DNA of 64,000 nucleotides, taken from a virus. The stretch lies in IMG/VR virus record IMGVR_UViG_3300025715_000001, one strand, 5' to 3'. Position numbers and translations under genes: made by a program. Under the pieces are notes generated by a model. The model worked only from the letters and a program-made list of their open reading frames with translations. It made no database searches and was not told where the DNA came from. Shown piece by piece: positions 5,229 through 19,920 of the stretch; within the stretch, counting starts at the first letter, position 1, and every line of letters starts with the position of its first letter.

Positions 5229-5788
5229 CGGAATTCTCTGCGAGAGACCCAGGCCTGAAGACCGGGGAGGTAGAACGAACCGCCCAAAGGGCGGTCAGCC
5301 GTGTTCAGTTCCGCTTGACTTGGATTATCTTTATGAGCTTTAACAACAGATTCATTGCAATTTATAAGATCAATTAAAATATCTACATCTCGTTCACCTA
5401 GCCGTTTATTTCTTCTTTGTTGTTTAACTTCATTTATAGTGTTTATATCCAGGTTTTTATCAATTCCCCAAAGATTTGCACCTATATCTTTTAATAAAGA
5501 TACATCACGAAGACTGTTTATGTCTTCATTATCAAGTGCAAACCATTCTCCGATTACTCTTTTGGTTGAAAATTTATCGTGGATTTTATATTCAAGAATT
5601 TCAGGGCGATAGCATGGAATAATTACTTCATGCGATAATTTAATATCTATTTCAAATGGATGCAGTATAGAAATTAAATAGTTATCTAAATCTAAAACCC
5701 TATTTATTTTCATAGTTGACCCTATCTTAAAAAAGATATTTTCTTTCTGCATTCCTTTTATTACATAGACAAATCCAAAATCACTCAT
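5225..5788 (-). CDS. T5orf172 / GIY-YIG-like domain protein on an AT-rich cassette
   Basis: FVYVIKG...FKIGST...R...L.....H.....GEWF pattern. Sharp GC drop at about 5330-5870. The C-terminal ~30 aa are encoded by flanking GC-rich DNA. Confidence 0.65.
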   Translation of the reverse strand: MSDFGFVYVIKGMQKENIFFKIGSTMKINRVLDLDNYLISILHPFEIDIKLSHEVIIPCYRPEILEYKIHDKFSTKRVIGEWFALDNEDINSLRDVSLLKDIGANLWGIDKNLDINTINEVKQQRRNKRLGERDVDILIDLINCNESVVKAHKDNPSQAELNTADRPLGGSFYLPGLQAWVSRREFR

Positions 5789-6513: not shown

Positions 6514-7020
6514 TCATGCGGCGCTCCCCGACAAATGAAACAACACCCGATCCACGTCCTCAAACCCGCGCACCACCGCCGCAATCCCCCCGCCGGCCTG
6601 AACCGCCGCCAGAAACGCCTGCTGTTCCGGGGTCGCTTTTTCGCCGGGCCGTTTGACCTCCAACGCGAAATACCGCCCATCGGGCCGCATTCCGTGCAGG
6701 TCGGCCATGCCTTTGTGCGCCGGCTCGGCGCCGCGCAGATACAGCGCATAGAACCGGGTGAAGCTGCGCCGCCCTTTGTGCATGGACAGCACGGAACCGC
6801 CGTTGCAACGGGCAAACCAGACGATGCGCCCACGGGCTTGTTGCGCCCGCAGGTAGTCCACGATCTGCGTCTGCACTTCGGATTCTTTCGGGCGCCGGGA
6901 CGCCAGCTTAAACGGCTTCTGCGGCGTTTTCGGCGCGGGGAGCGCCTTGGGTAGCCCTGCATCGGGCAGCGTGCCTTGTAGAACTTCCTGGACGGCTTTA
7001 CGCGGCATCAGGGAATCCAT
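6514..7020 (-). CDS. VRR-NUC domain nuclease
   Basis: E.QTQIVDYL..., WFARCNGG, GMADLHG, YFALEVKRPGEKATPEQQAFL..V.AGGGIAAVV match the VRR-NUC pattern. Confidence 0.8.
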   Translation of the reverse strand: MDSLMPRKAVQEVLQGTLPDAGLPKALPAPKTPQKPFKLASRRPKESEVQTQIVDYLRAQQARGRIVWFARCNGGSVLSMHKGRRSFTRFYALYLRGAEPAHKGMADLHGMRPDGRYFALEVKRPGEKATPEQQAFLAAVQAGGGIAAVVRGFEDVDRVLFHLSGSAA

Positions 7021-9499: not shown

Positions 9500-10357
9500 T
9501 CACGCCATCTCCTTCACAAACTGCCGGGCCACATAGACCACGGCCTTGCGCCGGGCGCCGGGCTTGGAGGGGGGCTGCACTTGAGAGATAACACCTTGAT
9601 CCAACAAAAGATTTAAGACTGCTTCGCGCTCTTGATCGGTAGCGTTGCGATAGGGCTTACAAAATTGTTGTAACGTGCGGTGACCGGCTCCGTTTTGTTT
9701 TTGAGTGATGATAAAGTCCAGTAACGATTCTTCTAGGGGTCCGCGCCGGTAACGTCCATGCTGAATCGGTTGGCGGGGTATCGGCGGCTGTTTTTCCAGC
9801 GCCTCAAGCACCGTAAGGTCGTTTATTAGGTCTTGAATCAATGGCTTGCCGCACTGCTGTTCCAGCTTCAGCGCCAGGGGAATCAGCGGCTCTGCCAGCT
9901 TCTGCACCGTCCAGTGCAGGCGAGTCAGGTTCTCCAGGGTGTCGTAATCCACGACCACCTTTCCTTTAAGCAAATCAGCAAGTTGCTGTGCGAGAACGGC
10001 AACATCGAGCGGCTGGGAGGGGGTGCCGGGCAGGCTGTAGCCGCCGGTTTTGCGGATCGAGGGGAGGACTTCTTCAAACAGCCAGGTTTCAAACCGCGCG
10101 GCTTCCGGGAGGGTGCTGCCCGTGATCAGCCGATAGGCGTCCGGTTCGTTGATGACGCGGACTTCTTGAACGCCGCCGGGCGTCTGAAGGGGGTGGTATT
10201 TCGCCGCCCCCTTGCAATGCTGTTTAAGAGCGCGAAGCGAGTCTTGATAACCGAGGACTTCGGCAACATCCTTGCCGACGAACCACGGATTGCCCTCGAT
10301 GTTGAAGGCGCGAACTTCGTGGGAATCAAACGAGAACGGAATGAGACTGCTAGACAT
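9500..10357 (-). CDS. BRO-N domain antirepressor-like protein with a C-terminal domain shared with the primase
   Basis: FSFDSHEVRAF..GNPWFVGKDVAEVLGY is a BRO-N pattern. ATG at 10357 with GGAG 8 nt upstream. The last ~25 aa are identical to the primase C-terminus. Confidence 0.8.
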   Translation of the reverse strand: MSSSLIPFSFDSHEVRAFNIEGNPWFVGKDVAEVLGYQDSLRALKQHCKGAAKYHPLQTPGGVQEVRVINEPDAYRLITGSTLPEAARFETWLFEEVLPSIRKTGGYSLPGTPSQPLDVAVLAQQLADLLKGKVVVDYDTLENLTRLHWTVQKLAEPLIPLALKLEQQCGKPLIQDLINDLTVLEALEKQPPIPRQPIQHGRYRRGPLEESLLDFIITQKQNGAGHRTLQQFCKPYRNATDQEREAVLNLLLDQGVISQVQPPSKPGARRKAVVYVARQFVKEMA

Positions 10358-10421
10358 GATGACAAACTCCAAGTAGGTAAAAATTTTTGGAGTTCGTCGC
10401 TTCCCTTCCTACGGGGATGGC

Positions 10422-10498
10422 GGCGAACGATACGGGGGTAGGAAATGCCGGTCTACTTGGACACCGGCCAACCCGAAGGTTGCCCCGCATCGTTCGCC
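10422..10498 (-). ncRNA. c4-like antisense RNA, copy 1 (77 nt)
   Basis: Minus-strand fold: a 16-bp closing helix, CAACC-UUCG-GGUUG, GCCGGU-GUCCAAGUAG-ACCGGC, and joining strand AUUUCCUA. Loop and joiner are complementary to boxes at 10551-10558/10569-10576 and 10368-10376/10406-10411. The tetraloop and wobbles only make sense on the minus strand. Confidence 0.6.
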
Positions 10499-10518
10499 AT
10501 CGTAAAGTGTACCGACGT

Positions 10519-10543
10519 AAAAAAAGCGCCGGTACGATGGCGC
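10519..10543 (-). terminator. intrinsic-terminator-like hairpin + U7 between primase and c4-like RNA 1
   Basis: Minus strand GCGCC-AUCGUACC-GGCGC followed by UUUUUUU. An alternative hairpin GGCGC-AUCA-GCGCC uses the same 5' arm. Confidence 0.45.
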
Positions 10544-10642
10544 TGATGCGCCAAGTAGATTCAACGGGTTTTCTACGCCCGGCCCCGGCAGTCGCCAAGG
10601 CCAGACCAGAATACGCCCGTGGATTCTGGCGCGCAAGGGGAG

Positions 10643-12949
10643 TCACGCCATCTCCTTCACAAACTGCCGGGCCACATAGACCACGGCCTTGCGCCGGGCG
10701 CCGGGCTTGGAGGTGGGCTGAATCTCGACCACCGCGTCGTCGGCCAGCAACTGCTTGATCAGGGCCTCACGTTTGTCGTCCGGCAAGTTGCGATAGGGCC
10801 GGCAATACTGCTGCAACGACCGGGTCCCCGCGCCCTTGCCTTTTTCCGTTGTGATGAAATCCAACACCCGCTCATACGCCGACAACTTGCCATCCTCGCT
10901 GGACAGCGCCGCGAATCGCGCCAGCAACCGATTCAGCCGCCGCACTTCGCTGTCTACGCCGGCCTGAATCACTGTTGGGGTAATGGCGGGCGCTGCCTGA
11001 TTGAGGCAAAACGCCAGCGCCGTCGCCTCGCGCCGCGCAATCAGCCGCGCGGTCGAGCGCAGCGTTCGCGCCGAACGCTGGATGGGGATTGCCTCCAGCG
11101 CCGCATAGAACGGCTCAATAGCTTGGGGGAAGGTCGCTCTAATTTGGGTCGGTAATTGGCTGGGCAAATTTACTCCGGCCAGATTGCCGGATCCCATGAC
11201 CGCCGTCGCCAGTGCCCGTAGTCCTGCGATCAGCGCCGCCGGGAATGGACCGGTGATGATCTGCTCTGCGGGCGCTTCGGTGAATTCGTCATTATTCAGA
11301 ATCCAGTACTGAATCTGCTCCAGCGCCCCACGGCCTACTTCCGAAAGTTTAAGCGCGGTCGCTAACTGGTCGTGGGACAGGGCCGCCAGCATCGTGAGGT
11401 GAGGCGCCCGAATGAGGTACTGACCGTCGATGCCGGGGTCCTGTAATTTGATGTCGTCCACGTCCATCGTGATCGGTGTGCCGTCCCAAACTTCGCTCAT
11501 CACTGTAAGCACTTGCTCGATAGCGCCCGCCGGCTGGCGTTTGGCGAATTGCAGAATTACGCCCCACTCGCTGCACAGATAGAGCAGGCTGGGCTGGCGC
11601 CACAGCAATTTATACACCTGTTGCGGGCTGGAAAGCCGTTGCTGGCGCACTGTTTTCTCCAGCCCCAACTGCTCCATGAGTTCGCGCACCACGGTCAGGT
11701 ACGGTCTGATTTCGCCCGTACTAGACGCCGCCAGCGCCAGATACAGCCCGGTGGGATCGCCCGACTGGCTAACGACCTGCCGGCCCGTCAGGTGCGCCAT
11801 GACCGCTTTAGCGGCCACCTGAGCGGCCAGAGGGCAGCGCATCGGCACTCTGGACAAAATCTCTTGTTCCAACTGCGCGAACAGGGGCACCAGCAACGGT
11901 GCAAGCGGCGCTTCGCCGGTTTCATCCACCTGATAGTTCGGTCTCTGTCCGTTGGCGCGCTGAAGTTCATCGGCAAAGCGGTCATGGGGATCCAGTGCTT
12001 TGAGCGTCTCCCAGGTTAACCCGCCCAGCCACGTTTCCGCATCGCCCTCCGCCTCGGTCCAGTCGGCCACATCCCAGCCCGTCGGCAACGTCGCGGGCAA
12101 CACCGCACACTGAAGCTCTGCCGCCCGTGCCATCAGCGCCTGGGCCACCTTGGTCATCGCCTTGAGGCCCGGCGCATCCGCATCCGGCAACAGCCACACG
12201 CTGCGCCCGGTCAGTGGCATCCAGTCGGCATGATCGGCGCTGCCCGCCCCGCCCGGCCACGTGATGACCACAAAATCAGCGAACAGCCGTTGTGCCGCGA
12301 CGGCGGTTTTTTCACCTTCGACCACCAGGACCGGCGCCGCTGGGCGCTGGGTTAAGGCGGGCTGGTTGTACAGCGGGCGCGGTTTAGGCCAGGTTTTGTT
12401 TTGCCAGCCCGAAACCTGCCAGTAGGTCAACGGGTAAAAATCCTTTTTGCCGCCCGGCTGATCCACGCGCCGCACATAGCCCAGCAGCCGGCCCTGCTGA
12501 TCCAGATAGCTCCAGACAGGTTGCCCCGCGTGCAGCGGGGGCGGCGGCGCGTCTTCTGGTATCGGCATCACGCAGACCTCATCCGGCGTTACGTGGATTC
12601 GGTCGCGCGCCTTAGCCAGGAACGGCGCGATGGCCGGGTCCACGCCCGCGCCGGCAAAACCGTTCAGGCCCAGTTGGCGCTCAATGTCGCCGGCGGCTTC
12701 GCCTTGGCTGAGGTTCTGCACATACGCCCACAAGCTAATCAAATCGCCGCCGGCGTCGCCGGTAGCGAAATCCGCCCACTTGCCGGTCAGGATATTGATG
12801 CGGAAATTACCGGGGGTCCGGTCGGCGCGAGTCGGATTGAGTACGTCATACTCGGCCCCGTGCAGCCGCCCGCCCGGCAACCAGGCCAGCAGCAGCCCTG
12901 GACAAGCCTGGAGCGCAGCCCGCGCAATGGCTGGAAAGTCGGCGCTCAT
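10643..12949 (-). CDS. bifunctional primase / DUF3987-type helicase-like replication protein
   Basis: 768 aa. Toprim-like VLVVEGEKTA...LLPDADAPG, a long DUF3987-like middle, and a C-terminal winged-helix-like tail. Confidence 0.8.
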   Translation of the reverse strand: MSADFPAIARAALQACPGLLLAWLPGGRLHGAEYDVLNPTRADRTPGNFRINILTGKWADFATGDAGGDLISLWAYVQNLSQGEAAGDIERQLGLNGFAGAGVDPAIAPFLAKARDRIHVTPDEVCVMPIPEDAPPPPLHAGQPVWSYLDQQGRLLGYVRRVDQPGGKKDFYPLTYWQVSGWQNKTWPKPRPLYNQPALTQRPAAPVLVVEGEKTAVAAQRLFADFVVITWPGGAGSADHADWMPLTGRSVWLLPDADAPGLKAMTKVAQALMARAAELQCAVLPATLPTGWDVADWTEAEGDAETWLGGLTWETLKALDPHDRFADELQRANGQRPNYQVDETGEAPLAPLLVPLFAQLEQEILSRVPMRCPLAAQVAAKAVMAHLTGRQVVSQSGDPTGLYLALAASSTGEIRPYLTVVRELMEQLGLEKTVRQQRLSSPQQVYKLLWRQPSLLYLCSEWGVILQFAKRQPAGAIEQVLTVMSEVWDGTPITMDVDDIKLQDPGIDGQYLIRAPHLTMLAALSHDQLATALKLSEVGRGALEQIQYWILNNDEFTEAPAEQIITGPFPAALIAGLRALATAVMGSGNLAGVNLPSQLPTQIRATFPQAIEPFYAALEAIPIQRSARTLRSTARLIARREATALAFCLNQAAPAITPTVIQAGVDSEVRRLNRLLARFAALSSEDGKLSAYERVLDFITTEKGKGAGTRSLQQYCRPYRNLPDDKREALIKQLLADDAVVEIQPTSKPGARRKAVVYVARQFVKEMA

Positions 12950-13834: not shown

Positions 13835-14304
13835 TACAGCAACTCCCGATTTGCGGCACGGAAAAAGGATTCAAAATCAGCAAAAACCGTTAGAAGAGCG
13901 TCTTGTTGTTGCAAACACCACTCCACTGAACAGCGTTTTGCGCCTTTCCCGATCAGCAAAAGAATTGCTGGAAGCCCAATTTTTCGCAGACAGGCGATAG
14001 TATAGGGGAATTTCTCATCAGCAGACCCGGACGTTTCTTGGTATTTGCATTCAATGATGAGGCCGTCAGGATACTTGACCGAGTTCCAAACATAGAAATC
14101 AACCCGCATCGGCAACCCGTAGATACTCAAGAAATCGCCGCGATGCTGGTAAATAAAAAACGGCTGATCGCGTTCTTCAGGAATCGCGGCGACCTGAATA
14201 TATCCTTTTGATTTTAGGCGCTGAATAATTTGCTCCTCAAACGCCCTGCCGTTTTGATTGGCCTGGCGGCCTTGCTACTGAATCAATTTCGCCAAAGCGT
14301 TCAT
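13834..14304 (-). pseudogene. PD-(D/E)XK restriction-endonuclease-like ORF interrupted by an in-frame TAG at codon 10
   Basis: The ATG at 14304 overlaps the Dam stop. TAG lies at 14277-14275. The same frame continues QGRQANQNGRAFEEQIIQRLKSKGY...MRVDFYVW...LIIECKYQ (D...ExK). The track only reports the TTG-initiated 13834..14130 remainder. Confidence 0.55.
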
Positions 14305-14900
14305 GTCCGCCACCCCATTGTTTTGCTGATGCACCAGCCAAACCGGGAAAACTCGACGACAAACGCTTCAGCGCGGGATTCCGATCCAAAATAGAAAAAG
14401 GTCTGTCCGCGAGTGTTTCCGCTGACTCGCTTGCCATCGGTGGCTTCAAATGAGATGCGATGGTGGGTAAAACAGACGGCGGTGCTGCGTTCGCGTAAAG
14501 CGCGGAACCATTGAGTGTCAGTAGCGTTATTGACTAAAATAACCGCCTGTTCAATATGCCCGGCGCTCAAATTCTCAAGAAACGTCTCAATTGCGCGGGT
14601 AATCAATCCAGAAGAATAAGGGGGGTTCATCCAGACCCGAACGCCGTTGGGGTATTTGCGCTTATCCTTGCGCCACGCATTAACGAATGCTGACCGATCT
14701 TCAGTCAAAATTCGGGTAGCGCGGATGGTCTCATTAGCTTTTTCGGAAGAGAAAGGATCGAGATCAATGCCGTCCATCACAGCGCGGGCGGCTTCGACAT
14801 AAGAAATGGGGGTATACCACGAATCCGCATCGCGGTCGGGAAGAGTGGCGCCAGGCTTGCGACCAATATAGCCAAGCCGATTAACATCAGCGATTAACAT
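14301..14900 (-). CDS. phage Dam-family DNA N6-adenine methyltransferase
   Basis: DSWYTP... and the catalytic WMNPPYS motif. ATG at 14900 with GGAG 8 nt upstream. The longer track ORF start lies inside the structured RNA. Confidence 0.85.
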   Translation of the reverse strand: MLIADVNRLGYIGRKPGATLPDRDADSWYTPISYVEAARAVMDGIDLDPFSSEKANETIRATRILTEDRSAFVNAWRKDKRKYPNGVRVWMNPPYSSGLITRAIETFLENLSAGHIEQAVILVNNATDTQWFRALRERSTAVCFTHHRISFEATDGKRVSGNTRGQTFFYFGSESRAEAFVVEFSRFGWCISKTMGWRT

Positions 14901-14953
14901 GACAGACTCCTTGCAAAATTGGAGTCCGCCACTTCGTTTTCCACGACGAGGGT

Positions 14954-15031
14954 GGCGGACGGTACGGGGCTGTGGAAAAGCCGGTCTGCAAGGACACCGG
15001 CCAGCCTTACGGCTACCCCGCGCCATCCGCC
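14954..15031 (-). ncRNA. c4-like antisense RNA, copy 2 (78 nt)
   Basis: Same architecture as copy 1 with compensatory changes: UAGCC-GUAA-GGCUG, GCCGGU-GUCCUUGCAG-ACCGGC, joiner UUUUCCACAG. Matching boxes lie at 15082-15089/15099-15105 and 14908-14915/14937-14944. Confidence 0.6.
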
Positions 15032-15051
15032 ATTGAGGGAGAATCGGCCAT

Positions 15052-15075
15052 AAAAAAAGCGCCGATTCAAGGCGC
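15052..15075 (-). terminator. intrinsic-terminator-like hairpin + U7 upstream of c4-like RNA 2
   Basis: Minus strand GCGCC-UUGAAUC-GGCGC + UUUUUUU. Alternative hairpin GGCGC-GCA-GCGCC. Confidence 0.45.
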
Positions 15076-15161
15076 TGCGCGCCTTGCAGTTCGACCGGTT
15101 TCCACGCCGGGTTGCCGCTGCTGCGACAACGGTTAAAGCATACCCCGATACCGCGCGCTTT

Positions 15162-15977
15162 TCAACCATGGCCCGCTTCCCCGAACACGCCGGAACTCAA
15201 CCCGTGCTCCCCGCCGACCAGCAGATCCAGCAGCACCTCGATACGGACGCGGCGGTGATCCCAGACGCGCGGATGCTGAACGAGGAACTTCCGCACCGCT
15301 GGCATCGTAATCTGGTACTGCAACCGCCGTGTTTCCAGGTCATCCGCGCACGCTTCGCTGGCAATCCCGACTCCGCGATCTGCCTTTAGCCAGCCTTTCT
15401 CAATCCACTGCGCCACCGATTTACTCGCGATGCCCAGCATTTTTCCGACCTCGCTGGCGCTGTACCAGGGGCGATTCCAGCCGAGTTGCAATTCCCCTAC
15501 CCGATCCGCGACCGCGGATAGCGACCGCTGAAAACCGGCCTGATGCAACCGCCGATGCAGCGTGCTGAGCGCGTAGCCCCGTTCGATGCCGTCGCGCAAA
15601 AGGTCAATTTCAGCGTCCGTCCAGCGGCGCCAGGGCTGTTCTGCCACCCGTCGCACGCCCAGCATCCCCGCCCGCCATTTCAACCAACTGACCTCGCGGT
15701 CTACTTCCCGCGCCAGCCGTTTCAATTCCGGCTTGGGCTGGCGGTAGGCGCGTTTGATCGCCGCGTCAATCCACTCGGAGGATTCCTGCCGGCGATGCGG
15801 CATCCGACCGGCAATCCGCAACCGCAGCGCCCCGGCTTTCCCCTTGATCGAGTTTTTACTACGCTGCGGCAAAGCCGCCTGCGCGGCGGCCAGACCGCCC
15901 TTGGGCCACGCCGCTTTGAGCGCCTCCATCTCCCAGTCCTGCCAGGGAGTTTTCACCGCGCCCGGTTTACCCGCCAT
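15162..15977 (-). CDS. putative DNA-binding protein (Myb/SANT-like W-repeats + HTH)
   Basis: Repeated W..W/E..L segments, and an HTH-like YSASEVGKMLGIASKSVAQWIEKGWL. Confidence 0.5.
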   Translation of the reverse strand: MAGKPGAVKTPWQDWEMEALKAAWPKGGLAAAQAALPQRSKNSIKGKAGALRLRIAGRMPHRRQESSEWIDAAIKRAYRQPKPELKRLAREVDREVSWLKWRAGMLGVRRVAEQPWRRWTDAEIDLLRDGIERGYALSTLHRRLHQAGFQRSLSAVADRVGELQLGWNRPWYSASEVGKMLGIASKSVAQWIEKGWLKADRGVGIASEACADDLETRRLQYQITMPAVRKFLVQHPRVWDHRRVRIEVLLDLLVGGEHGLSSGVFGEAGHG

Positions 15978-17964: not shown

Positions 17965-19257
17965 TTACGCTGTTGCATAGTCGAATCCATCGTTGCGCTG
18001 AATCAGGGTGAAGTGTTTGTAGCTGGCCCCTACGGTTCCCGCTGCGGTTTTGATGTCCAGCGTTCCCGTGGCGCGAATTCCGGTGAGCCGGGCAACATAA
18101 CTTCCGGCATATTTGCCTTTCGGCATGTGGAGTTTCACGATGTCCCCGGTTGAAAACCCATGGACTCGTTTGATGCGCCCGGCATTACCGCGTGGAAATC
18201 CGAACCGGTCGGTGCGCACTACTTGATGCGTTCCGCGCCCCTTGGCGGTGATAACCAGCGGCTTCATGCCGTCTCGAATCGAAACCATCTCGCCCGATTC
18301 CGCCACGCATACGGCGTCAATCCAGTGGTCTTTTGCGTAGCCTTGCCGAGTCCGGTTGAACTTGGTGCGCCCGCCGCTTCCGGTGGTGACGGGTAGCCAC
18401 GCTTTCAGGCGATTGACCAATGCCCATCGGCTGGCATTCACCGCCGCCGCGTCTTTCAGCGGCGCTTTGGCTTGCGCCTTGATCTTGCGGAGTATCTCCG
18501 GCTTGTCTTTGAGAAATTCATCAATCGGGCGACTGCTCTTGCGCTGATTGCAGGGGTGACAAGCCAGAGCCAGATTGGATATCCGGTTGCTCCCACCCGC
18601 CGCTTTGGGCTGGATATGCTCGACCTGCAACGGCACGTCCTTCTTACCACAATAGGCACAGGTGCGATGCCATTTTTCGAGCAGATATTCCCGAACTTCG
18701 TAGCCGGCCAATTCGCCCTGCTGATACTCGGTTCCGCTGACTTCCGGGTTGACCATCGCCTGCATGTCGAACTTGACCAGTTCAACCGTCGCCTCGGTGA
18801 TGGGGCAACGCGCCGCCAACTTGCGAATGACGGACTCGGTATTGACCACCCGCGATTCAATGGACGGCGGTAGCCAGCCGGTAGTGCGCGTGCGGTTCAA
18901 AAACCGGGCTGGCCGATAGCGAGTCTTGCGCCCGCGCCGTCCTCGGCGTAATGAGCGGCGAGATTCAAGGCTGTTCTTGATCGCCTGTCCGCGATGATTC
19001 AAGTTCGAGCCGAACAGTACCACCGCGCCCTGCTGCTCGAAGTGGCCGACCAGGGCGATGCCGGTCGTTTTGCTGCCCGGATCAATTTTGACTTCAACCG
19101 GCTGTATGTCGCCATCGGCCCGGTCTTTCAGAATGATGGTGAACGGATGCAACCGATAGACGGCGGCTTTGCCCGCCGTCAACAACTTGCGCGCCCGCGC
19201 TGGTCGGCAGGGCATCAAGGGCTTCTTCGTGTTGCTCAAGACAAAAACGGAATTCAT
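17965..19257 (-). CDS. iscB: IscB, OMEGA-family RNA-guided nuclease (PLMP + RuvC + bridge helix + HNH)
   Basis: KKPLMPCRPARARKLL (PLMP), KIDPGSKTTGIAL (RuvC-I), RRSLRRGRRGRKTRYRPARF (Arg-rich helix), CAYCG..LQVEHIQPKAAGGSNRISNLALACHPCNQRK (HNH), DHWIDAVCVA (RuvC-III). ATG at 19257. Confidence 0.85.
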   Translation of the reverse strand: MNSVFVLSNTKKPLMPCRPARARKLLTAGKAAVYRLHPFTIILKDRADGDIQPVEVKIDPGSKTTGIALVGHFEQQGAVVLFGSNLNHRGQAIKNSLESRRSLRRGRRGRKTRYRPARFLNRTRTTGWLPPSIESRVVNTESVIRKLAARCPITEATVELVKFDMQAMVNPEVSGTEYQQGELAGYEVREYLLEKWHRTCAYCGKKDVPLQVEHIQPKAAGGSNRISNLALACHPCNQRKSSRPIDEFLKDKPEILRKIKAQAKAPLKDAAAVNASRWALVNRLKAWLPVTTGSGGRTKFNRTRQGYAKDHWIDAVCVAESGEMVSIRDGMKPLVITAKGRGTHQVVRTDRFGFPRGNAGRIKRVHGFSTGDIVKLHMPKGKYAGSYVARLTGIRATGTLDIKTAAGTVGASYKHFTLIQRNDGFDYATA

Positions 19258-19520
19258 GGGTTTACACCCTCTCGAAAATCGGTAACGGTCATCTCGCAGG
19301 GAGTGCAACGGTCGTTCAGTCGCAGCGTTCGCGCATTCACCACGTCGCGCAGCATCGCTTTTGACGACAGGGCTTGAGACTGATGAAGCATCTCAAGGTG
19401 TCTCGCTTTCGCTTCACGTTGCATCGTCTACTCTCTGATTAGAAAGTCTGCTGGTTGAGTCTCATGCGGATTTGGGGCTGTCAGGGATGACAGTCACAAA
19501 CCCGCACGGCGGCGACTCAA
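19258..19520 (-). ncRNA. candidate IscB omega-RNA (structured 5' region); ends uncertain
   Basis: Minus-strand helices GGUUGAGUC...GACUCAACC enclosing CUGUCA-UCCC-UGACAG, and CUUGAGA-UGCUUCAUCA-GUCUCAAG. The position immediately 5' of iscB is as expected for IscB systems. Confidence 0.5.
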
Positions 19521-19704: not shown

Positions 19705-19920
19705 TCACGCCGCTCGCTCAACCAATCCGGCGCATTCCGTACCAATTTCATGGGCCGTGACCTGGCCATGGGTCGCCCGTTCGATGGCTACCGCATGGCG
19801 GGCTAACAGTTGCGTCGAGCCAGCTTTCCACAAATGCACCGCCTGCTGGCTCACCCCCACCTGGTCGGCGAGCGCCTTGGCGCCGCCGCAAATTTCAATC
19901 GCGCGTTTGATCGTGTTCAT
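19705..19920 (-). CDS. Cro/YdaS-like HTH regulator
   Basis: 71 aa. AIEICGGAKALADQVGVSQQAVHLWK is a YdaS/Cro-type HTH. It is the first gene of the leftward arm. Confidence 0.7.
   Translation of the reverse strand: MNTIKRAIEICGGAKALADQVGVSQQAVHLWKAGSTQLLARHAVAIERATHGQVTAHEIGTECAGLVERAA

Follow-up and report, generated by a model that had tools for sequence, protein, structure and literature searches.

The virus record IMGVR_UViG_3300025715_000001 of IMG/VR provides a stretch of 64,000 nucleotides, here called the window, from an uncultured tailed phage whose terminase, portal, and tape-measure genes lie on the plus strand. We consider it likely that positions 10355-10640 of the minus strand, in front of a gene for a Bro-N protein (bro), form a complete control module of the phage P1 c4 type within the leftward early operon of this phage. 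Family membership, RNA structure, complementarity, and covariation between the RNA and its targets support this reading directly. In P1, the c4 RNA represses ant by pairing around the ribosome-binding site (summarized in PMC12197685), and the C4 family of RNAs was defined in 2010 (PMC2864571). The sequence by itself is enough to recognize the P1 design in this phage, which is uncultured and GC-rich and shows no similarity to known phages at the BLAST level. The module at bro is referred to as module 1, and a second module of the window, described below, as module 2.

A C4-Family RNA in Front of bro

The minus strand of 10340-10650 was read directly. As a check on its proposal of a c4-like RNA, the first-pass annotation of this DNA had named the Rfam C4 covariance model (RF01695), and this model matches 10416-10504(-) over positions 1-87 of 87 with 69.7 bits (E = 1.6e-11). 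Membership was called for scores of at least the curated gathering value of 45 bits over the full model, and the c4 RNA of phage P1, taken for calibration from the annotated immI region that we fetched, scores 68.8 bits on RF01695. The element at 10355-10640(-) is confirmed as a genuine member of the C4 family.

The fold that had been described for this RNA is reproduced in every part, at the same positions, as the minimum free energy (MFE) structure. Its helix-to-helix body (10498-10422(-), 77 nt) is followed by a GCC tail, and the MFE and centroid folds of the body both contain a 16-bp closing helix that includes one G.U pair, the hairpin CAACC-UUCG-GGUUG, a second hairpin GCCGGU/ACCGGC with the loop GUCCAAGUAG, and a single-stranded joining strand. 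The fold energy of -47.9 kcal/mol (z = -6.8) is equaled by none of 200 dinucleotide shuffles, and the three-way junction of the MFE fold agrees with the structure line of cmscan. The recognition element b' is the loop sequence UCCAAGUAG (10461-10453), and the joining strand UUCCUAC (10444-10438) serves as a'. Since the RNA and its targets share one coding strand, it is antisense in the trans-pairing sense only.

The length of 77 nt given earlier is that of the body; the P1 annotation counts a 3-nt ACC tail as part of c4, and by analogy a mature RNA of ~80 nt (10419-10498(-)) would be expected. The 5' G of module 1 (10498) comes after AU, as at the annotated 5' end of P1 c4, and an RCC tail follows the helix in module 1 (GCC, within GCC(A)), in module 2 (ACC), and in P1 (ACC). 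The RCC tail and the 5' G after AU fit processing by RNase P, on which the processing of P1 c4 reportedly depends.

Complementary Sites on Both Sides of the RNA

The elements of module 1 follow one another in the order promoter position, a1, b1, c4, a2, b2 over the ribosome-binding site, and start codon, and both the order and the spacing match those of annotated P1 immI. It had been claimed that the complement of the second-hairpin loop occurs twice in the transcript, once upstream and once over the GGAG Shine-Dalgarno (SD) sequence of bro, and this is confirmed at 10558-10551 and 10376-10368. The loop complement CTACTTGG has three occurrences in the window, against a shuffle mean of 0.75, and all of them fall within the locus. 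The minus strand has it in the sense orientation at 10558-10551 and 10376-10369, and at 10453-10460 it is the opposite-strand reading of the loop. Apart from b1 and b2, the 64 kb contain no copy of the 8-mer complementary to b'. The upstream site b1, CUACUUGG (10551-10558(-)), is an exact complement of the c4 loop over 8/8 bp, with a duplex energy of -11.9 kcal/mol. The downstream site b2, CUACUUGGA (10376-10368), overlaps GGAG (10370-10367), which lies 9 nt ahead of the ATG (10357-10355), and pairs with b' over 9/9 bp (-12.9 kcal/mol).

The joining strand also has a partner on either side of c4. Downstream, a2 (GUAGGAA, 10412-10406) lies in the loop of a predicted hairpin CCCC-GUAGGAAG-GG (10403-10416(-)) and pairs with a' over 7/7 bp (-9.9 kcal/mol); the match reported earlier, UAGGAA at 10406-10411, is present and is one base pair longer than had been thought. 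The imperfect upstream match at 10569-10576 is real but weak, as a1, GUAGAAAA (10576-10569), pairs over 4+3 bp with one mismatch (-4.1 kcal/mol), the weakest a1 of the 26 modules compared below.

The translation-initiation region of bro (10355-10398(-)) contains b2, the SD sequence, the ATG, and a local hairpin that sequesters the SD. This hairpin had been described as a pairing of AACUCC with GGAGUU; it folds with 12 bp rather than 6, GACGAACUCCAA/UUGGAGUUUGUC, between 10398 and 10361. In the folds of both modules of the window, a2 and the variable part of b2 are shown in hairpin loops, and such a display would suit a loop-loop start of pairing.

Covariation of RNA and Target

A window-wide Rfam scan yielded a second C4 match at 14948-15037(-) with 64.3 bits, which is part of a complete module at ~14895-15165(-) in front of a Dam-type methyltransferase gene. 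When the two modules are aligned, 79% of the 318 columns are identical, and module 2 is a complete paralogue of module 1. Its c4 RNA has a 78-nt body (14954-15031(-); fold z = -4.8), with UCCUUGCAG (14994-14986(-)) as b' and UUUUCCAC (14979-14972(-)) as a'. This address differs from that of module 1, and a1, b1, a2, and b2 have all changed to match. On the upstream side, a1 (GUGGAAA, 15105-15099(-)) pairs over 7 bp and b1 (CUGCAAGG, 15089-15082(-)) over 8 bp. The downstream target region (14898-14949(-)) comprises a2 (GUGGAAAA, 14944-14937(-)), which lies in a hairpin loop and pairs with a' over 8 bp, a predicted SD hairpin (14932-14899(-)), b2 (UUGCAAGGA, 14916-14908(-)), which lies over GGAG (14910-14907) and pairs with b' over 9 bp including one G.U, and the ATG. 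The alignment also reveals an A-U to G-C compensatory change between the SD hairpins of the two modules.

The two addresses are orthogonal with respect to b'. Module 1 b' pairs over 8 and 9 bp with its own b1 and b2 and over 5 and 4 bp with the targets of module 2, and the reverse is true for module 2; the duplexes of b' range from -11.9 to -14.3 kcal/mol for cognate pairs and from -6.0 to -7.5 kcal/mol across modules. The a' strand discriminates less than b' between the two modules. A candidate extra target of module 2 b' within the bro coding sequence, UUGCAAGG(G) at 10217-10210(-), which would hint that the second c4 cross-regulates bro, was rejected as being at chance level, with 12 7-mers observed and 10.7 expected.

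Relatives were collected with a 39-nt scaffold pattern in which the loop core was left free. This pattern matched 24 viral contigs and 15 genomes, the latter including Janthinobacterium, Pseudoduganella, Massilia, Pandoraea, Dyella, Endozoicomonas, and an Enterobacteriaceae metagenome-assembled genome (MAG), and one of the 39 matches (L098) is false. A loose pattern for hairpin 2, GCCGGTGTCCNNNNNNACCGGC, was discarded, as nearly all of the 66 viral contigs that it returned are chance matches in GC-rich coding sequence. The automatic finder of closing helices mis-measured bulged helices (at lengths of 57-63), and the tail and lead strings were used only for helices of 16-17 bp. All 17 comparison loci that were scanned lie above the C4 threshold (57-86 bits).

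Removal of duplicates leaves 26 unique modules, among which b' has 18 distinct loop sequences and a' 11 distinct strand sequences; a1, b1, a2, and b2 occur at nearly fixed offsets across them. Pairing of at least 7 bp is found in 96% of cognate versus 16% of swapped combinations for b1, 73% versus 12% for b2, 92% versus 6% for a1, and 85% versus 18% for a2. Covariation of this kind supports functional pairing of c4 with its targets.

One orthologue of module 2, at 280-592 of the viral contig IMGVR_UViG_3300045994_000392 (L109), has the same scaffold (C4, 61.8 bits) in front of a Dam gene whose product is 80% identical in amino acid sequence, and its address has been rewritten. Its b' is GCCUAGUU and its a' is UUUACGAC, and the target positions b1 (ACUAGGC), b2 (AACUAGG), a1 (GUCGUAA), and a2 (GUCGUAAA) have all changed to match. 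The two paralogous modules of the window, together with this locus of the same gene context and different address, amount to a natural specificity experiment, and they would offer a compact system for asking how loop addresses of 8-9 nt set RNA immunity. No C4 was found upstream of Dam in locus L110, whose Dam ranks next in closeness (77% identical), or upstream of 16 more distant Dam homologues. The module thus behaves like a swappable cassette. Two modules in one element are not unique to the window, since a Desulfamplus MAG (L105) has C4 modules at 5424-5502 and 6803-6874, 1.4 kb apart, with different sets of a' and b' that in each case match the flanks of their own module. Within the family, c4 is followed by varying genes, among them those for Rha and P22_AR_N antirepressors, a long primase-like open reading frame (ORF), and many small unknown ORFs.

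Three other catalogued RNAs of phages or islands, Betaproteobacteria-1, int-alpA, and Proteo-phage-1, score above threshold in c4-bearing relatives (L069 5772-5890, L072 4202-4268, L077 9984-10051, L093 1984-2052, and L086 720-803), and none of them was found in the window.

The Leader and Its Relation to IsrK

The first-pass annotation did not include module 2, the hairpin-loop display of a2 and b2, or an intrinsic-terminator-like hairpin, AGCGCC-N8-GGCGCU followed by U7, that the terminator scan places between b1 and c4 of module 1 (10544-10519(-)). The hairpin of module 1 is part of the isrK model match, and a terminator hairpin with U7 is also present in module 2 (15076-15052(-)). An equivalent hairpin and U-run lie between b1 and c4 of P1, and a run of at least five T's is found within 70 nt upstream of c4 in 27 of the 27 modules examined.

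The leader of module 1 (10565-10601(-)) is laid out in the manner of isrK and c4-a1b1 elements according to cmscan and the terminator scans, with two hairpins (hairpin 1, 10601-10582; hairpin 2, 10581-10565), a1 in the second loop, a single-stranded b1, and a terminator. The two-hairpin form is that of the family model, and the single-sequence MFE fold favors one longer hairpin. The isrK model (RF01394) matches 10519-10601(-) over its full length with 34.6 bits, below its gathering score of 50 (E = 1e-4). The c4-a1b1 model (RF03163), which had also been proposed as a check, likewise matches this leader at full length and yields 24.5 bits, under its gathering score of 46.7. In module 2, the leader (15052-15130(-); hairpin 1, 15130-15111; hairpin 2, 15110-15095, with a1 in hairpin 2) has a full-length, sub-threshold isrK match of 33.3 bits. 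The full-length matches of the two models in the window have E-values from 1e-4 to 7e-3. The P1 leader itself fails with isrK (35.1 bits) and passes with c4-a1b1 (51.0 bits). Given the terminator between b1 and c4, we assign the leader of module 1, as a prediction, to the IsrK/c4-a1b1 type.

A putative promoter of module 1 (10608-10636(-)) lies directly behind the stop codon of the primase-like gene, with -35 TTGCGC (10636-10631), a 17-nt spacer, and -10 TATTCT (10613-10608). It is proposed from its position, which is homologous to that of P1c4 in P1 and of the promoter called by the scan in module 2 (TTGAAA, 17-nt spacer, TATGCT; 15137-15165(-); 9/12 matches, shuffle mean 0.1).

The isrK model (no clan) and the c4-a1b1 model (clan CL00128) match overlapping stretches of the leader in P1 (L108, 4218-4312) and in two other loci (L072, 2644-2731; L091, 5449-5536). 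The two models appear to describe one element, which would link the experiments on IsrK to c4 modules. These data tie IsrK, an experimentally studied RNA, to the a1/b1 leader of c4 modules and suggest that a1/b1, of unclear function in P1, may be a decoy.

The experiments in question concern isrK-orf45/STnc1160-anrP of the Salmonella prophage Gifsy-1 (Hershko-Shalev et al. 2016, PMC4825925), in which IsrK ends at a leaky terminator, read-through transcripts are processed to an ~80-nt RNA, and translation of the downstream antirepressor rises >100-fold (114- to 171-fold) when IsrK is provided in trans. The architecture corresponds to that of the window in its promoter, two-hairpin leader, leaky Rho-independent terminator, ~80-nt processed RNA, and antirepressor-type gene, as well as in the complementarity of the leader to the downstream RNA, and the isrK model matches at full length upstream of both c4 copies of the window. 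The differences are that the window leaders fall below the isrK gathering score and that the published model is one of activation through orf45 translation, not of c4-type repression (PMC4825925). Judged from the publication, STnc1160 would be a c4 RNA and IsrK an a1/b1 decoy. A listing for a Xylella genome also contains a C4 with an adjacent isrK and a second C4 (PMC12189769).

On this basis the key regulator could be the short leader that stops at the terminator, an IsrK-like a1/b1 RNA ~85-90 nt in length (roughly 10601-10519), which on accumulating would titrate c4 or remodel the read-through transcript and thereby turn bro translation on, with c4 serving as a constitutive brake. We take this to be a serious alternative, with a likelihood somewhat short of even. 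The isrK scores upstream of both c4 copies are comparable to that of the P1 leader, isrK is above threshold directly upstream of C4 in 9 of the 17 related loci, the pairing of b' with b1 is as strong as that with b2 (-11.9 vs. -12.9 kcal/mol), and the effect of IsrK in trans is large. However, the window leaders stay under the isrK gathering score, the degenerate a1 of module 1 weakens any decoy, and in the Gifsy-1 experiments the downstream RNA was co-expressed and IsrK toxicity was not relieved (PMC4825925); the sponge reading is ours and not that of those authors. A role of the leader as activator complements repression of bro by c4, our best explanation, and does not replace it.

Comparison with Characterized Systems

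The first-pass annotation had likened the locus to the immI c4 design of P1 and P7. This likeness holds for the RNA family, the order and spacing of the elements, and the covariation; it does not extend to an icd ORF, to the regulated protein, or to a1, which is weak here. The P1 record NC_005856 annotates a1, b1, c4, a2, b2, icd, and ant1/ant2, with a2 and b2 described as sites of "repression of icd ant translation." Apart from their nearly equal scores, the two RNAs share the three-way junction with its long closing helix, UUCG-type hairpin, and recognition hairpin, the placement of b' in the loop and of a' in the joining strand, the encoding of the RNA on the strand and transcript of its target, and the RCC tail. 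Both loci have a1, b1, a hairpin with a U-run, c4, a2, and b2 over the SD in the same order and at similar spacing: the gaps b1-c4, c4-a2, a2-b2, and b2-start codon are 52/9/29/10 nt in module 1, 50/9/20/7 nt in module 2, and 66/6/22/10 nt in P1.

The differences from P1 are considerable as well. The window has no icd leader ORF, and b2 lies over the SD of the regulated gene itself, whereas Icd of P1 is a separate 73-aa ORF. The regulated protein combines Bro-N, which has no relationship to P1 Ant, with an unknown C-terminal domain and has no ANT/KilAC, whereas P1 Ant1 is a Pfam ANT protein. Neither a C1 operator nor a repressor was recognized in the window, module 1 has a degenerate a1, the c4 body has 77 nt as opposed to 74 nt in P1, the genome has two differently addressed modules, and BLAST detects no DNA similarity to a cultured phage or plasmid. 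Because there is no icd ORF and because the regulated protein is a Bro-N and not an ANT/KilAC protein, the module resembles P1 immI in its way of working without being an orthologue of the immI operon.

In the APSE phages of Hamiltonella, c4 and isrK small RNAs lie beside a Bro-N gene, and a' and b' match the upstream noncoding region of that gene (Rouil et al. 2020, PMC7313666). The pairing of RNA and gene is the same as in module 1, with c4-family and isrK-family RNAs adjoining a Bro-N gene; compared by description, the APSE case differs in host lineage and sequence, in that one c4 was reported, and in that additional matches lie in a distant DNA polymerase gene that has no counterpart in the window (PMC7313666). 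An arrangement of c4 beside a Bro-N gene is thus already known, and the window extends a catalogued family and leaves the picture of c4 biology unchanged. Modest interest beyond this attaches to the presence of two orthogonal modules within a single operon, to the orthologue L109 with its rewritten address, to Dam as a target, and to the overlap of the isrK and c4-a1b1 models.

The CI RNA of phage P4, with seqA and seqC, and the RNA that controls the antirepressor of phage N15 are small RNAs processed from the leader of the operon that they control, with complementary sites on both sides. In this respect they are like the module, that is, a processed small RNA from its own operon leader with complementary sites up- and downstream, but they act through premature transcription termination and not through occlusion of the ribosome-binding site, and they belong to different RNA families. 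Control of the P4 CI/N15 type is also mentioned in the IsrK study (PMC4825925).

Proposed Mechanism and Alternative Readings

Based on these comparisons we propose the following course of events. Transcription would enter from the primase-like gene, from the weak module promoter (about 10636-10608), or from both. The two-hairpin leader would present a1 and b1 and stop at the leaky intrinsic terminator (10544-10519), and read-through transcripts would contain c4 and the bro mRNA. From these c4 would be excised, RNase P probably cutting before G10498 under the guidance of the 16-bp helix, which resembles a tRNA acceptor, and of the 3' GCC(A) tail, to yield a stable three-way-junction RNA of about 77-80 nt. 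Its loop b' is predicted to kiss b2, which spans the loop and the 3' arm of the SD hairpin, while the joining strand a' would pair with a2 in the adjoining small hairpin loop. The pairing would cover GGAG and block translation of Bro-N, and it may lower downstream transcription by polarity. The terminated a1/b1 leader could compete for c4 as an IsrK-like decoy, mainly via b1. Module 2, with its orthogonal b', would do the same for the Dam-nuclease-ParB block.

Several points weigh against this interpretation. Processing, repression, the decoy role, and the antirepressor activity of Bro are carried over to the window by homology. No repressor that Bro might antagonize was recognized in the window, where only a Cro/YdaS-like gene was found. 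The sigma-70 scan calls no promoter in module 1, whose putative promoter has 7/12 consensus matches, and the leader lies under the gathering scores of both the isrK and the c4-a1b1 models. The a1 of module 1 is poorly complementary, and this part of the upstream site may be in decay or of no importance. Furthermore, the SD is already held in a 12-bp hairpin without c4; binding of c4 would add to this repression or, conceivably, remodel the hairpin, and the proposal does not explain how bro gets translated. Finally, because there is no icd-like leader ORF, the route of P1, a block of icd translation followed by termination before ant, cannot apply literally.

It is possible, though in our estimation rather doubtful, that the main output of the module is transcriptional, that is, that c4 pairing at a1/b1 or a2/b2 sets the passage of the terminator at 10544-10519 or of a Rho site near the bro start, in the manner of P4 CI, so that the module would be a gate dividing the long early operon into segments. 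In P1, the block of icd translation by c4 reportedly leads to Rho-dependent termination before ant. In favor of this, the two modules and all family members examined have a terminator separating b1 from c4, the two modules sit within a single long block of co-directional genes, and the IsrK authors raise the idea that the processed downstream RNA controls the IsrK terminator as CI would (PMC4825925). On the other hand, the overlap of b2 with the SD is exact in the two modules and most of their relatives, as a translational block predicts, and b1 ends 6 nt upstream of the terminator stem without overlapping it, leaving no obvious alternative of antiterminator and terminator that pairing would disrupt. 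Transcriptional and translational control are not mutually exclusive.

The degenerate a1, the weak promoter, the position of the c4-bro unit between 78-nt direct repeats that are 99% identical and indicate recent recombination, and the existence of close Dam homologues without any module might be taken to mean that a recombined cassette has left the module behind as an inactive relic, still matched by the covariance model and regulating nothing. We consider this very improbable, since the 16-bp closing helix is intact, b1 (8/8), b2 (9/9), and a2 (7/7) are perfect, and the score equals that of the functional P1 RNA; the SD hairpin is also intact, and an identical module occurs with an identical Bro protein on other contigs (see below).

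We give practically no credence to a protein-coding reading, in which a 98-aa ORF at 10350-10646(-) and a 91-aa ORF at 14894-15169(-) are orf45-like leader peptides coupled to bro and the RNA structure is incidental: an open frame does span both modules, from the stop codon of the upstream gene to just past the downstream start codon, and orf45 translation contributes to anrP expression (PMC4825925), but one of these ORFs reads c4 in frame 1 and the other in frame 0, the two products give a weak alignment (score 52), the alignment of the two modules has frame-breaking gaps of, for example, 5, 2, 1, and 8 nt, the substitutions seen in stems and in pairs of RNA and target are compensatory, in most modules none of the three frames has a stop over c4, as expected of GC-rich structured sequence, a whole-module open frame varies and is absent from 7 of the 27 modules, and even in orf45 the nucleotides are conserved and the amino acids variable (PMC4825925). 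No frame is kept over the whole module across the 27 modules, and the coding ORF was rejected.

Building on repression of bro by c4, we offer a tentative and, on balance, unlikely extension. The two orthogonal c4 modules might be independent RNA gates that split the long early operon into a Dam-nuclease-ParB-primase part and a Bro-helicase part, each gate consisting of a leaky terminator, a processed repressor RNA, and an IsrK-like anti-c4 decoy leader. The c4 modules would then be portable, re-addressable cassettes for any gene and not dedicated to antirepressor control, and the 78-nt repeats would mark cassette movement.

Gene Context

The bro gene (9500-10357(-)) encodes a 285-aa protein with a Pfam Bro-N domain (75.9 bits, residues 14-99). 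PHROG "anti-repressor Ant" families match residues 1-127 only, and the term antirepressor, which the first-pass annotation had used for the product, is a label at the level of annotation. The C-terminal 76 aa are common to the upstream primase-like protein, with 64% identity overall and the last 26 aa identical. At the DNA level, the 3' ends of bro and of the primase-like gene form a 78-nt direct repeat, 99% identical (9500-9577 and 10643-10720), that brackets a c4-bro unit of 1143 bp, which suggests cassette insertion or recombination. The identical module with the 285-aa Bro protein is present on 10 metagenomic contigs. A BLAST search with the 311-nt module returned no match among cultured phages and plasmids, and one with bro and the module gave weak Bro-N matches only, the best being to Xylella phage Xfas53 (69%). 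Among viral contigs, relatives of the Bro protein were limited to one distant match, which has no C4 upstream.

Both modules lie inside one long co-directional leftward block of genes. Its first part encodes a Cro/YdaS-like protein, an RRXRR-HNH protein, a DUF3102 protein, and a 271-aa ORF, followed by module 2 and Dam, and its second part, after Dam, encodes PD-(D/E)XK, ParB_N, and primase-like proteins, followed by module 1, Bro-N, and an SF1 helicase. The dam gene (14301-14900(-), ATG 14900-14898) encodes a 199-aa Dam-type N6-adenine DNA methyltransferase (Pfam Dam 63.9 bits; PHROG DNA methyltransferase). Downstream of it are the PD-(D/E)XK gene (14130-13834(-); PDDEXK_11, 76.4 bits) and the ParB_N gene (13834-13082(-); 31.7 bits).

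The Cro/YdaS-like gene (19705-19920(-), 71 aa) heads the leftward operon, beside a divergent junction with plus-strand genes near 20.1 kb, and no CI-type repressor was recognized among the ORFs neighboring it. The RRXRR-HNH protein is encoded by a 447-aa ORF (17965-19308(-)) that is IscB-like, with Pfam RRXRR (233 bits) and HNH matches and an N-terminal KPLMP motif. Directly upstream of this ORF, at 19282-19491(-), the HEARO/omega-RNA model (RF02033) matches at full length with 40.4 bits (E = 3e-6), below its gathering score of 83. The ORF and the HEARO match look like an OMEGA-type element inside the phage early operon.

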